Translations under genes and position numbers: made by a program
Assembly (NCBI GenBank): GCA_963921275.4
Contig: OZ001293.3
Coordinates: forward strand, 6,624,001 to 6,688,000
Origin: an uncultured Hormoscilla sp.
Lineage (GTDB): Bacteria; Cyanobacteriota; Cyanobacteriia; Cyanobacteriales; Desertifilaceae
Length of the DNA: 64,000 nucleotides
Direction of reading: 5' to 3'
Shown: positions 6,855-45,846 of the stretch, piece by piece
Layout: each line of letters opens with the position of its first letter
Numbering within the stretch: position 1 is the stretch's first letter
The notes under the pieces: model-generated
Told to the model about the DNA's origin: nothing
Seen by the model: the letters and a program-made list of their open reading frames with translations, nothing else
Database searches by the model: none

Positions 6855-7725
6855 GTGCGATTCGTTCTAGCCTAACGTGGTCAAACACGGAACGCTAGCC
6901 CGGTTTCATTAGCCGGGAACTCTGACCGCATGGGGGTTAAATTCCCCTCCCCCCAGGTACGGGGGTGACACCGGTCCTCGGTGCTACGAAGCGACATCAT
7001 CGTGGTGCTAAGCGAGGACTCAAATGTAGGATAACTGGCAGCCTAAGCCGGTGACGCCGCTAGGAAAGATATCCAAGGTTAGAGCAGGCAAACATGTGCA
7101 AGCCTCGTTATAAGGAACCAGCGAAATAAGGCTATATGCGCTGGCCTAAAAAGGAAATGGTAGCTAGTATTAGTTTTAGACTCTGGCTAATATAGTACTC
7201 AAATAGCTCCCGGGGTATAGTGTGGACCTAAAGGTATCGCGAAATGTTGTTAGGGAACGAAGTAACCTCTCGTGTGCTGTCCATCAGGACAAGTTAGATG
7301 TTAAGCGCAAGCCACGGGGGGAGGGATGGCCCAAGAAGCGAATGCCCGGGGTAATTCCTGGGATAACATCTACAGTAATGTAGATGATGCTGGGTAGCCA
7401 GCGCTGACGTGGGTCGGTGATACTAGGAAGCTGCTGGAATGAGTAATCCTAAAAAGCCACGGAACTAATCCGAAACGCAAGTGGAGGATAAGGTATGGAT
7501 AACTGGTAAAACTGACTTGAAAATGGTGATACTAACGGTTATCAGAACAACCACTCGCTAAACCAGGAAAGGGAAGAAAAGACAGGCGGCAAGGGCTAAC
7601 GGAAGTAATTCCTATTAAGTCTACCTATGAAAAGGGCCTAGTACCCAGTAGCCGGATGCGGTGAAAATCGCAAGTCCGGTTCCTCAAGGGAGGGTCGGGA
7701 AGCGATTCCCGGCTCGACCCCATCC
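6855..7725 (+). mobile_element. ORF-less group II intron F, antisense inside the intron D ORF
   Basis: GTGCGATTCGTTCTAG start; DV tagccggatgcggtgaaaatcgcaagtccggtt; removal restores ETEIV|RHIKV. Confidence 0.9.
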
Positions 7726-9138
7726 GACTATTTCAGTTTCAGTGTAGCGGGCCAGTTTTACGATGTCTCCACCTTTTGTTTTTCCAGTGAACCTCCACCG
7801 GTCACTCCCGGTCAGGGCCCAATATTTTCTGGCAATCCATCTACCCGATTTGTTGGGATGCCTTCCCTTCGCCCATTGCCATAGCAATTCCCACAAGTGT
7901 TTATCCATAGAGCTGTAAGTGACCTTACTTACCACCGTTCTGAAATAGTTACTCCACCCCCTTATTACCGGGTTCAGTTTTGCTATCACAGCCTCCTGTG
8001 GTGCTCCTTTATGGCGGCGTACTATCTGCAATAGTTGCTCTTTATGATTTCTTATGGATTTGTCACTAGGCTTGATTATGGTTTTGAATCCTAGGAGGGT
8101 TCCGTGGCCATTTCTGCCGCTTTGATATTTTCCTACTCTGTATTGTCGGATGTTAAACCCTAGGAAATCAAATCCTGGGTTTTCTCCTTCCAGAGTGTGG
8201 GATATCCTCGTTTTCTCGGCTTTTAGCTCTAGTCCTATCTCCCTCAACCACTTTTCAATCACTCCTTGCGCCTTCTCTATCTTCGACCGGTCCTTATGCA
8301 TAACCACAAAGTCATCCGCATATCTTACTACGGTTAACTCATTTTCCTCTTCCTTTGTGCGGGCGAGTTCCATCACTACCCCTTCCAGCTCATGTAGAGC
8401 TATGTTGGCTAGTAACGGTGATATCACTCCGCCTTGAGGAGTCCCGGCTTCCGTGATTTCCAATTTCCCCCGGTCCATTACCCCGGCTTTTAACCATCCC
8501 CGTACTTGCTTACGGATTAATGATGTGGTATTCAATTTCTTTAGGAGTGCAGAATGATTGATTTTGTCAAAACACTTTGCAATATCCGCATCTAACACCC
8601 ACTTTGGTTTCCATTTGATGCTGAGGAATATTGCTGCAACCGCATCATGGCATCCTCTTCCTGGTCTGAATCCGTAGGAATTGGGTTCCATATACGCTTC
8701 CCATTCGGGCTCCAGCGCTTGTTTAACCAATCCTTGAAGCGCGCGGTCGTGCATCGTTGGTATTCCTAATGGCCGCTTCTCGTCCCTTCCTGGCTTCGGT
8801 ATCCACACTCGACGTGTGGGTTTTGCCTTTGCCTCTCTGGTAACTCTGAGTTGGCCTACCAGTTCTTGTCGCTGCTTTGGGGTCAATGCTTTAACACCAT
8901 CCACTCCTGCAGTCTTTTTTCCCTGGTTCTGTTGTATTACCTGCCGAACCGCTATCATCTTTGCGGACCATGACCTATTCAGTAACCCTTGGAGCTTGCG
9001 AACTTTCTGCTTATTGCCTTCCTGTGCCGCTCTGTAAATTCGTTTTTGCAGCTTAAAGACTACCTTCTCCAGCTTTCGCCAGGGGGTCGTCTTCCATTCA
9101 TACTCTTGTCTTTCGACTAAGTTCCGTGACATATTCAC
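7684..9138 (-). CDS. ltrA: Intron D RT/maturase, truncated before the endonuclease domain
   Basis: Full RT0-7 with RYADD and thumb; last 13 aa are read into intron F. Confidence 0.9.
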   Translation of the reverse strand: MNMSRNLVERQEYEWKTTPWRKLEKVVFKLQKRIYRAAQEGNKQKVRKLQGLLNRSWSAKMIAVRQVIQQNQGKKTAGVDGVKALTPKQRQELVGQLRVTREAKAKPTRRVWIPKPGRDEKRPLGIPTMHDRALQGLVKQALEPEWEAYMEPNSYGFRPGRGCHDAVAAIFLSIKWKPKWVLDADIAKCFDKINHSALLKKLNTTSLIRKQVRGWLKAGVMDRGKLEITEAGTPQGGVISPLLANIALHELEGVVMELARTKEEENELTVVRYADDFVVMHKDRSKIEKAQGVIEKWLREIGLELKAEKTRISHTLEGENPGFDFLGFNIRQYRVGKYQSGRNGHGTLLGFKTIIKPSDKSIRNHKEQLLQIVRRHKGAPQEAVIAKLNPVIRGWSNYFRTVVSKVTYSSMDKHLWELLWQWAKGRHPNKSGRWIARKYWALTGSDRWRFTGKTKGGDIVKLARYTETEIVGWGRAGNRFPTLP

Positions 9139-45011: not shown

Positions 45012-45846
45012 GTGCGATTCGTTCTAGTCTAACGTGGGCAACTACGGAACGCTAGGCCAGGTCCAAACTGGTAACTCTGGTATTCATGGGGGTTAGATTC
45101 CCTCTCTCCAAGTGTGGGAGTAACACCGGTCCTTAGTGCTGCTGAGTCACATCACGGTGGTGCGGAGCAAGGACTTAAATGTAGGATAGCTAGCAGCCTA
45201 AGCTAGTGACGCCGCTAGGAAAGATGCTAATGGCTAGAACAAGCGAACCTGTGTACGCCTCGTTATCTAGAACCAGCGAAATAAGGCTTAAAGCGCTGGC
45301 CCAAAAGGGAAATGGTAGTTTGTGCTGGTTCTTGCACTTGGCCAGTATCGCACTCTAAGAACTCCCGGGGTATAGCAGGGGCCTAAAAGCATCGTGAAAT
45401 GATACTAGGGAACGAAGTAACTTCTCGTGTGCTGTCTAGATTGGACAAGTTAGATGTAAAGCGCAAGCCGCGAGGGGAGAGATAGCCCGAGAAGCTAATG
45501 CCTAGGGTAACGCCTATGGATATGATGGGGTGTTCCTCATCCAGCTGACGCGGGTTGGTTAAAGTAGGAAATCTTGGGTAAGAGTATCTCTAAGACGCCG
45601 GAGGCCTCTCGAAGGTTGGATGACTGGTAAAACAGACTTGGAAATGGTAATACTAAAGGTTATCTGGCAGCGCCGCTTACCAACCAGGAAAGGAGTGAAA
45701 TCGCATGAGATGAGGGACAAGTGGAGCAATCCGTAGTAATCCTAGTAGTGACAATGCCCTACTTGCCAGTAGCCGGATGCGGTGAAAGTCGCACGTCCGG
45801 TTCCGAATGGGAGGGTTAGGGGGTGACCCCTAGCTCGACCCCGACT
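45012..45846 (+). mobile_element. ORF-less group II intron G
   Basis: GTGCG start; EBS1 tgcact pairs perfectly with IBS1 agtgca; removal restores LRSA|NLRRA. Confidence 0.93.

Follow-up and report, generated by a model that had tools for sequence, protein, structure and literature searches.

Four ORF-less group II introns of the window, that is, of the whole 64,000-nucleotide stretch of Hormoscilla sp. DNA that was analysed, belong to a lineage of about 400 copies, in which EBS guides are fixed within subfamilies and match the insertion sites. Splicing and retrohoming of these introns are likely served by the RT of another lineage residing in the same genome, and new subfamilies are likely founded by a change of guide, brought about partly by recombination. 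Taken as a whole, this reading is given a probability of about three in four. Below, the ORF-less lineage of the four window introns (E, F, G and H) is designated lineage B, and the co-resident RT-HNH introns lineage A.

ORF-less introns of the window

Intron F occupies positions 6855–7725 of the forward strand (871 nt) and was recognised by the Rfam match of its DV/DVI and by its copy count, while its 3′ end ATCC was set by invariant flanks together with a frame test. Intron G (45012–45846, forward strand, 835 nt) comes from a subfamily of 71 copies, to which intron E (9502–10335, reverse strand, 834 nt) also belongs: the two coincide at 832 of 834 positions and are the same element. Intron H (14077–14874, forward strand, 798 nt) is a singleton. 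The common scaffold that an earlier note on this DNA had seen in all four is borne out by 71–77% identity between subfamilies.

Judged by their sequences, all four are genuine group II introns that lack an ORF and show IIB2 features. The GUGYG 5′ end and a DV that has the AGC triad, a GNRA loop and a bulge of 2 nt are found in E, F and G, H failing on DV, and the DV/DVI of the same three introns scores above the gathering threshold of Rfam Intron_gpII (RF00029). Pairings EBS1–IBS1, EBS2–IBS2 and EBS3–IBS3 are all supported by the covariation scan and permutation test described below, and the γ–γ′ pair and the bulged A of DVI are in place. The IIB2 5′ consensus GUGCGAUUC is also present. Another mark of this class is described as about 60 extra nt at the base of domain I, usually forming two stem-loops (PMC8643678, PMC4649490), and single-sequence folds predict hairpins at nt 14–80 of F, G and H. 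The pair beneath the AGC triad is U-C, and a strict DV pattern is matched by 59 of 123 copies outside the F and G subfamilies. Rfam D1–D4 models gave zero matches over 6400–15000, and the MFE fold of the whole intron G was not better than those of shuffled sequences (z −0.4). Since H has lost 17 nt of the DV 5′ strand after position 14806, AGC triad included, and has no Rfam match, it is most likely catalytically dead.

The 3′ end consensus of group II introns is AY, and none of the four has it: F ends in ...CCCCATCC, and E, G and H in ...CCCCGACT. The ends found across lineage B are GACC, TAAT, GACT and ATCC, among which AY fits TAAT only; the boundary was confirmed by the frame test, and the non-AY end is a variant that gives no reason to reject group II membership.

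Pairing of EBS1 with the adjacent exon, proposed earlier for each intron, was found exactly as claimed. EBS1 of F, AGACTC (7178–7183), forms 5/6 pairs with exon GTGTCT (site consensus of the subfamily, GAGTCT); TGCACT of G (45333–45338) forms 6/6, the same hexamer of E (10015–10010, reverse strand) 5/6, and GAAATC of H (14398–14403) 6/6. In 20,000 random-site draws the F and G guides reached at least 5/6 pairs at a frequency of 1.6–1.9% and 6/6 at 0.1%. The EBS2 candidate of F was also right, (A)TAAGG at 7110–7115: EBS2 is TAAGG (7111–7115) with EBS2a at 7109, and the covariation scan relates them to exon positions −9 to −13 and −14, respectively, and places EBS3 at T7218. The γ nucleotide of F is G7324, with the last intron base C as its partner. 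The guide module of G (45264–45338) begins with EBS2a (45264) and EBS2 TCTAG (45266–45270) and ends with EBS1; EBS3 and the γ nucleotide lie at 45373 and 45480. EBS2 is TCTAG in E (10082–10078) and AGTCA in H (14330–14334).

Copies in the genome and in the genus

The genome contains 495 DV matches, about 403 of them belonging to lineage B, 87 to lineage A and 5 to others. The 409 introns that were bracketed make up 6.6% of the chromosome, and four fifths of them are ORF-less. The F subfamily comprises 139 near-identical full-length copies and the G/E subfamily 71. The GC skew is almost flat; copies of lineage B occur scattered over the two strands. Exact pattern matches within the genus number 252 in this genome (G000), 58 in G004, 7 each in G002 and G003, and 0 in G001. 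In four congeners, seven introns of lineage B likewise measure 747–901 nt and form 5–6/6 pairs with their own exons, and the 56 other genomes searched outside the genus yielded short pieces of lineage B only.

Covariation of guides and targets

An unbiased scan compared each alignment column with each exon position over 46 subfamilies. EBS1 (z 5.1–8.6) and EBS2 (z 4.8–9.0) emerged from it as antiparallel diagonals, accompanied by single pairs at exon −14 (z 8.2, EBS2a) and +1 (z 7.8, EBS3). The last intron base and F470, which make up the γ–γ′ pair, are Watson–Crick partners in 0.98 of the 46 subfamilies. In a permutation test with one site per subfamily (46 subfamilies, 10,000 permutations) EBS1 pairing amounted to 4.98/6 versus 2.61 in shuffled data, EBS2 to 3.70/5 versus 2.15, EBS2a to 0.80 versus 0.32 and EBS3 to 0.89 versus 0.41, none of the 10,000 permutations matching the observed value in any of the four cases. 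The expectation that EBS loops would covary with the flanking exons in further copies has therefore withstood this check. If the F and G guides are crossed onto each other's sites, the score is 2.3–2.4/6. Beyond the EBS positions, the sole feature common to the targets is a weak preference for purine at −15. The EBS2a–IBS2a contact is described as needed for mobility, not for splicing, and as requiring RT (PMC8643678); its retention in lineage B thus points to RT-assisted DNA insertion.

Change of guides and origin of subfamilies

The idea of the earlier note that a changed guide loop redirects targeting finds support in the covariation over 46 subfamilies and in two clusters (3 and 7), which switched guide and targets together via a replaced domain-I block. 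Cluster 3 is split 6/8 between two guide sets, with about 27 differing positions within nt 143–384 and few elsewhere in most copies; its EBS1 scores are 5.83 and 5.12 on own sites versus 2.25 and 1.17 when crossed. In cluster 7, with three sites in each subtype, crossing lowers the scores little (to 4.0 and 5.0, from 6.0 and 5.67 on own sites). Subfamily 44 is chimeric, its guide segment coinciding with subfamily 20 (176/176) and its downstream part with subfamily 21 (213/215 and 121/121); subfamily 13 likewise includes chimeric copies. Such mosaics suggest that new subfamilies are likely founded by guide change, at least partly through recombination between copies.

It might be argued instead that guides diverge by ordinary point mutation and selection only, as proposed for Thermosynechococcus elongatus, where EBS sequences were called malleable (Mohr, Ghanem and Lambowitz 2010, PMC2882425), the mosaics then being unrelated gene conversion or assembly chimeras. 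A mosaic window was detected in just 18 of 1035 subfamily pairs, and a search for donors of the blocks replaced in clusters 3 and 7 found none, the best outside matches being 92–93% and 86%, all of which would suit this explanation. However, the mosaic pairs involve 19 of the 46 subfamilies, differences are gathered within one block with many of them at non-EBS positions, and each cluster-3 subtype is represented by 6–8 dispersed copies with matching sites, which is not expected from a chimera. Point mutation as the only source is therefore considered unlikely, though still a serious competitor, and recombination between copies is preferred. New guide sequences must nevertheless first arise by point mutation, and to this extent the two readings overlap.

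ORF-less state and candidate helper

That these introns are non-autonomous group II retroelements can be maintained: tblastn with the IEP left all 341 of the bracketed B copies without a match, no RT remnant being found in any of them, and no lineage-B DV is located directly behind an RT ORF. Less fortunate was the proposal that an RBS and start codon in DIV of G are left from a vanished ORF and mark the region of IEP binding. The string AGGAG...ATG AGA TGA does exist (45691–45713, forward strand), but it is probably not a relic IEP start or binding site: the ATG occurs in 21 of 46 subfamilies and is absent from F, the mini-ORFs are short and variable, and the ATG is found some 110 nt downstream of where the ORF starts in ORF-bearing relatives. 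The possibility that this ATG is the restart codon of the 3′ exon was rejected too, the frames being short and variable and that of G stopping after two codons.

The IEP-binding region of G is likely its predicted DIVa hairpin (45547–45599, forward strand, closing stem GACG/CGCC), which was located by the lineage-A alignment, weak profile matches and two ORF-bearing relatives (L016 and L018); in such relatives the ORF starts in the 3′ strand of DIVa. A profile of lineage-A ORF starts finds weak matches in lineage B (best E 0.003; seven at E ≤ 0.13 versus none below 0.48 in shuffles), and no clear C-terminal ORF remnant was found in lineage B. TeI3-type introns of T. elongatus, by comparison, are marked by clear remnants of both ORF termini, N and C, on the two sides of one deletion.

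Lineage-A introns surround E and F. An outer one with an internal ORF deletion (6135–12006, reverse strand) is the host of an inner RT-maturase-HNH intron (6465–10582, reverse strand), which in turn contains E, inserted in sense orientation within domain I (twintron), and F, which lies antisense within the RT ORF and breaks it. An uninterrupted 592-aa lineage-A IEP with RVT_N, RVT_1, GIIM and HNH domains is encoded at 93–1871 (forward strand) and represents a candidate trans helper; its own intron ends at 1877 and is nested in a lineage-B intron with the tail at 1878–1993. Lineage-A ORFs of at least 560 aa with YADD and HNH number 19, of which 14 are full length.

By elimination, the co-resident RT-HNH lineage A is likely the helper of lineage B. 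The cognate IEP might rather be lost, unassembled or a free-standing RT/maturase, or a host factor might support splicing. Such a source would accord with the low identity of A and B ribozymes (53–58%, about 55% overall, best 0.55–0.58 for F, G and H), with genome completeness of 96.7%, with a few divergent RT remnants in the genome (30–41% identity) and with the existence in other cyanobacteria of ORF-bearing introns having a B-like DVI end (L016 and L018). However, the latter are no closer to B (49–54%) than lineage A is, and the divergent RT matches are few, mostly partial and never found ahead of a B-type end. Sequence resembling the A ORF start is kept in B subfamilies, and mobility was very recent, when lineage A provided the only abundant intact RTs. 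A helper other than lineage A is accordingly held to be improbable, and lineage A is retained in this role. In a FastTree of 80 ribozymes lineage B and the congeners' copies are placed apart from A, with support after rerooting of 0.50, which is unreliable.

Insertion sites and spread of the copies

Intron G is inserted in sense orientation within a pentapeptide-repeat gene (43404–46119, forward strand), and its in-silico excision joins exons 43404–45011 and 45847–46119 into a 626-aa ORF with pentapeptide repeats recognised by Pfam. Excision at exact ends leaves the frame open at 54 of 204 F/G sites versus 7–9 of 204 if the ends are shifted by 1–2 nt. With host ORFs called mechanically, without annotation, 81 long-ORF insertions are sense and 46 antisense (p = 0.0024), while for F alone the numbers are 35 and 25 (p = 0.25, not significant). 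Genes eno (at chromosome position 1800238), prfC (2134479), zwf (6446752), ribD and that of glutamate synthase are interrupted by B introns in sense orientation and in frame, eno having a single match in the genome. These features of the sites suggest that sense-inserted copies likely splice out as lariat. Persistence of the 46 antisense insertions (27 of them in single-copy ORFs) shows selection to be weak, so that plain knock-outs may be present among the sense insertions.

The Id3 region is identical in 139 of 139 full-length F copies, which occupy 123 distinct sites, and the EBS1 hexamer is the same in 71 of 71 full-length G copies, occupying 63. One fixed guide thus serves 60–120 differing, imperfectly matched sites, and the spread would be mostly tolerant retrohoming, retargeting being a rarer event that founds subfamilies. 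The F sequence of the window recurs unchanged in as many as 61 of the 139 F copies; by this sequence measure identical copies are a sign of recent mobility, and so many of them a sign of very recent mobility.

Multiplication by a DNA route (recombination, duplication, riding in other elements), or a copy number that is an assembly artefact, is very improbable. Some flanks do recur, and 20 of 143 F copies and 12 of 75 G copies lie inside lineage-A introns, with which they may be carried along. But the flanks, 123 and 63 of them distinct, are all complementary to the RNA guides, and this, the exact ends, the EBS2a covariation and the private substitutions carried by copies speak against such an explanation. 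So do the depth over G, about 60 times that of its flanks in run X1 (possibly the source sample, depth being no copy number), and the presence of the same intron in two other studies, partly at other flanks. An empty-site joint skipping G was not found in four contig sets, in which rare variants are dropped. Practically untenable is the claim of the earlier note that the loops are copy-specific, with EBS1 of each copy fitted to the place where that copy sits, so that some process actively diversifying the guides would be implied: 41 distinct EBS1 in 46 subfamilies and many singletons, H for example, agree with it, but it is refuted for both large subfamilies by their invariable hexamers, E and G have the same loop at different sites, and an EBS differs from that of the cluster representative in only 19 of 328 copies (13 from two subtype switches and 6 from single changes or deletions), so that guides are subfamily-specific.

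Proposed model and its meaning

A copy transcribed in sense direction would splice out as lariat with the lineage-A IEP bound at DIVa. The RNP would then reverse-splice into DNA pairing with EBS1 (−1 to −6), EBS2 (−9 to −13), EBS2a (−14) and EBS3 (+1), where the pairing map is that of covariation and the chemistry that of known IIB introns. About one mismatch per EBS is tolerated, as seen at the occupied sites, more than 100 of which are reached by one guide. The IEP would copy the RNA into DNA, insertion being as precise as the exact ends indicate. Occasional replacement of a domain-I block with one or more EBS, with which new sites correlate, would be the result of recombination.

A broader picture may be offered tentatively, its chance falling somewhat short of even. 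The ORF-less lineage would be long-lived and genus-wide and live on the RT of a lineage about 55% alike, as SINEs do on LINEs; with about 400 copies, it would escape target saturation by exchange of guide modules, make single-copy core genes of the enolase type dependent on a shared trans maturase and knock out a helper RT ORF by antisense insertion. If so, the invasion by introns and the shared splicing apparatus that have been proposed for early eukaryotes would have a living model in a bacterium. Spliceosomal introns are presumed to descend from group II introns, of which bacteria seldom have more than a few. About four times as many introns as in the largest printed count found are present in this chromosome, mostly ORF-less and partly within core genes. 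Three questions become testable here: what allows introns to multiply, whether a single maturase can serve a distant ribozyme lineage and how new target specificities originate. With their known guides, the 288 distinct natural sites also provide data on the rules by which IIB2 introns target DNA, which are of use in designing targetrons.

Comparison with known systems

ORF-less group II introns have been described as rare in bacteria (PMC4424553). Cyanobacterial expansion of chloroplast-like (CL-type) group II introns is known for Arthrospira platensis from Miura et al. 2022 (PMC8919778), whose survey of 1,790 representative bacterial genomes gives a maximum of 101 introns versus 409 bracketed here, the counting methods being different. 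In Trichodesmium erythraeum, as described by Pfreundt and Hess 2015 (PMC4649490), group II introns include an IIB2 host intron of a twintron, and the likeness to our case extends to protein-coding genes with ORF-less introns (there, an ORF is lacking in 10 of the 17 shown to splice), to twintrons and to the IIB2 criteria (GUGCGAUUC, the insertion of about 60 nt in domain I and EBS3). There, however, introns are counted in tens and their splicing was demonstrated, whereas here there are hundreds and splicing is deduced. EBS2a geometry is that of IIB1/IIB2 introns, exon −14 facing the base that lies two positions 5′ of EBS2; according to the same source, organellar introns without an ORF show no statistical signal of EBS2a, which is retained in ORF-less introns of T. 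elongatus (PMC8643678). Here, the signal from 46 ORF-less subfamilies is strong (0.80 versus 0.32). Our literature search, which covered few subscription papers and no supplements, found no published swarm of this size and no guide exchange.

The nearest counterpart is T. elongatus with its ORF-less TeI3 and ORF-bearing TeI4 introns (PMC2882425), and the closest solved relative of the lineage-A IEP is the TeI4h-type IEP (PDB 6ME0 chain C, E 4e-114). Both genomes have more ORF-less than ORF-bearing introns, families defined by EBS1/2/3, sites matching the EBS and twintrons in related introns. In T. elongatus, trans action of "driver" IEPs was established experimentally, whereas here it is deduced. 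In that published account the introns number 28 and occupy 1.3% of the genome, the largest family has 7 copies, the class is IIB1 and ORF-less introns are 85–100% identical to the helper intron, versus about 490 DV matches, at least 6.6%, 139 copies, IIB2 features and about 55% identity in our case. Unlike there, many copies here lie within genes, and recombinational guide exchange, proposed here, is not known from the T. elongatus account (PMC2882425). The basic mechanism is thus known from T. elongatus (Mohr 2010, PMC2882425), and the gain is no new principle but scale and variant features, which are, besides scale itself, the distant helper and guide exchange.

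Four ORF-less introns and their surroundings

The four ORF-less elements claimed in the earlier note are all present where it placed them: introns F (6855–7725, +), E (9502–10335, −), H (14077–14874, +) and G (45012–45846, +). F, E and G end in an Rfam group II DV/DVI, while H gives no Rfam match because its DV has lost 17 nt, among them the AGC triad. Identity among F, G and H is 71–77%, and E coincides with G at 832 of 834 positions. The EBS1/IBS1 counts reported for them (5/6 in F and E, 6/6 in G and H) are also right; randomly drawn genomic positions pair at least 5/6 with the F or the G guide in less than 2% of draws.

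E lies in sense orientation in domain I of an intron of lineage A, the co-resident lineage encoding an RT-maturase-HNH protein, and F lies antisense in the RT ORF of the same intron. The region 6135–12006 (−) is a nested stack, in which one lineage-A intron sits within the ORF of a second and the inner one carries E and F. At 1–1993 (+) a lineage-A intron with an intact ORF is placed close to where DIV ends in an intron of lineage B, the ORF-less lineage of E–H; a tandem DV/DVI pair (1801–1877 and 1915–1993) is found there, and the HNH motif of this ORF is EVDQ instead of the EVDH of most copies. A lone 5′ fragment of a lineage-B intron with the cluster 2 start sequence occupies 52716–52760 (+), its 3′ part being absent nearby. 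Next to it, at 52774–54361 (−), there is a tandem array of three copies of ~550–600 nt, each with an ORF of 107–128 aa of unknown function. Segments 2340–3400, 4860–5770 and 13100–13920 resemble, by eye, decayed insertion-sequence transposases.

Guides and insertion sites covary between subfamilies

The guides had been described as copy-specific, which turned out to be wrong: they are subfamily-specific, the Id3 region being common to 139/139 F copies and the EBS1 hexamer to 71/71 G copies. The flanks vary between sites yet converge on the guide complement, GAGTCT for F and AGTGYA for G. Mean EBS1 pairing is 5.14/6 over 123 distinct F sites and 5.22/6 over 63 distinct G sites, and therefore one guide serves many imperfect sites; exchanged between each other's sites, the two guides reach only 2.3–2.4.

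The EBS–IBS covariation check proposed earlier was run with one representative for each of 46 of the 61 lineage-B clusters (those 750–1100 nt long; 328 copies), all alignment columns being compared with all exon positions. Among variable columns the best partners gave clean diagonals, joining exon positions −1 to −6 with F324–329 (EBS1, numbered on intron F) and −9 to −13 with F257–261 (EBS2). F255 was the partner of exon −14, F364 (EBS3) that of exon +1, and F470 (gamma) that of the final base of the intron. High z values at some invariant columns are a numerical artefact, since observed equals expected there. All four EBS pairings (EBS1, EBS2, EBS2a and EBS3) exceeded every one of 10,000 permutations made with one site per subfamily; the relatedness of the subfamilies keeps this from being a probability in the strict sense, but the margins are wide. 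Forty-one distinct EBS1 sequences occur among the 46 subfamilies, and retargeting at subfamily level is well supported. The pair formed by exon −14 and F255 is the EBS2a–IBS2a interaction. According to PMC8643678, the RT stabilises this interaction, and it is required for DNA insertion but not for splicing.

Guides change in blocks

An EBS position differs from the cluster representative in only 19 of 328 copies, and 13 of these make up two subtype switches. Cluster 3 splits into a group of eight copies and a group of six, which differ at ~27 positions within nt 143–384, a stretch spanning EBS2 and EBS1; outside it most copies are nearly identical. Their sites track the guides: EBS1 pairing is 5.83 and 5.12 out of 6 when each subtype is scored at its own sites and drops to 2.25 and 1.17 in the crossed comparison. 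In cluster 7 the block 288–474 is replaced, which alters both EBS3, tracked by the first base of the exon, and EBS1, for which the contrast is small. Mosaic pairs, defined by a 100-column window at least 99% identical in sequences less than 92% alike overall, constitute 18 of 1035 subfamily pairs and involve 19 of 46 subfamilies; subfamily 44, for instance, combines the 5′ part of subfamily 20 with the 3′ part of subfamily 21. These sequences are most simply read as the outcome of recombination among the copies, whether through gene conversion or through template switching by the RT. A search for donors of the replaced blocks in clusters 3 and 7 found none. New guide sequences as such must originate from point mutation.

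Abundance and ageing of the copies

Full-length copies at ≥98% identity number 139 for F, 71 for G/E and one for H in this genome. A DV/DVI profile search gave 495 matches, all chromosomal (~403 of lineage B, 87 of lineage A and 5 of neither). Pairing of 5′ and 3′ ends yielded 409 whole introns in 100 clusters, with 86 ends and 67 starts left unpaired; they take up 6.6% of the chromosome, lineage B alone 4.5%. Contig depth over G in run X1, ~60 times that of the flanks, fits real copies, as evidence that is not independent. Lineage B was found in all four congeners; seven copies were extracted there, and each of them lacks an ORF and pairs with its own exons.

Head-to-tail F copies and F within F, with several 768-nt partial matches, occur on the chromosome (G000:C1), for example at 5447656–5450266 and 824936–826675, showing self-targeting and tandem insertion. 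Several multi-copy lineage-B subfamilies (clusters 2, 3 and 8) have an altered or partly deleted DV, such as GTTCCAGTCGCTCTTCAGG, or have lost its 5′ strand as in H, and such subfamilies have dispersed copies numbering up to 16. Across the copies of F and G, C:G>T:A accounts for 100 of 127 distinct substitutions, and 11 are tandem CC>TT/GG>AA doublets (F 6, G 5). Tandem CC>TT is a classic UV signature. This suggests that the ageing of the copies reflects damage to both DNA strands and not errors of the RT. A genome of the same order and another family (G028; 3.8 Mb, one contig) holds an unrelated group II intron expansion of its own, in which DV/DVI are different; 87/87 scored RF00029 candidates passed there, out of ~498 first-look candidates.

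Intron boundaries and host genes

The 3′ ends lie four bases past GACCCC (ATCC, GACT, GACC or TAAT). When introns were excised in silico at these ends, the reading frame stayed open at 54 of the 204 F/G sites; with a shift of one or two bases the number was 7–9. Removal of G restored a 626-aa pentapeptide-repeat protein. Within ORFs of at least 150 aa genome-wide, lineage-B copies are sense in 81 cases and antisense in 46 (p=0.0024), whereas random positions split evenly; for F by itself the bias is not significant. Among the sense hosts are prfC, zwf, ribD, glutamate synthase and eno, the last of which has only one match genome-wide. At the sequence level this suggests that lineage-B splicing works. 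The surviving antisense copies show selection to be weak.

Domain IV and the candidate helper

In lineage A, and in ORF-bearing relatives from other cyanobacteria with a B-like DVI (L016 and L018), the ORF begins at the first hairpin of DIV, on its 3′ strand. The same hairpin in G closes at 45547–45550/45596–45599, and a profile of the lineage-A ORF start weakly matches several lineage-B subfamilies there. The RBS-ATG in G, taken in the earlier note for what remains of an IEP start, is probably not such a relic: it lies ~110 nt downstream of the hairpin, the ATG is present in 21/46 subfamilies and absent from F, and only short frames are opened. At 45689–45707 of G, the lineage-B DIV carries AAGGRG and, ~9 nt downstream, a triplet of CAT/CAA type, a motif conserved across subfamilies.

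A search of 341 bracketed lineage-B copies turned up no RT remnant. Three B-type ends with intact DVI occur near an RT ORF, each after the end of a lineage-A intron. Lineage-A introns, typically 2.4 kb, encode RT, maturase and HNH domains; 19 of their ORFs are at least 560 aa with YADD and HNH, and 14 are full length. RNA identity between the lineages is only ~55%, and outside EBS positions their sites have only a purine at −15 in common. By elimination, we infer that a lineage-A IEP serves as helper. The copies themselves display ORF loss, precise insertion, guide–site pairing, recent expansion and block-wise guide changes. In the mechanism proposed, a lineage-B copy would splice and form an RNP with the lineage-A IEP, target-primed reverse transcription would follow, and recombination would cause the changes of guide blocks. 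Antisense F copies inside lineage-A introns make up 17 of 143. F has repeatedly landed in lineage-A ORFs at the site it occupies in the stack at 6135–12006, and so likely disables its own helper.

Comparison with known systems

Bacterial ORF-less introns are described as rare in a review (PMC4424553), and the largest per-genome intron count found in print is 101 (PMC8919778). No paper on such a swarm or on guide exchange was found in the literature covered, the main texts of largely non-subscription journals. In T. elongatus, as PMC2882425 describes, driver IEPs of the TeI3/TeI4 system mobilise ORF-less families with diverged EBS, and lineage B would work in the same way. It stands outside the TeI3/TeI4 family, however, having IIB2 features, as given in PMC4649490 and PMC8643678, and no close ORF-bearing relative. 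The elements E–H are a real feature and a variant of an already known kind.
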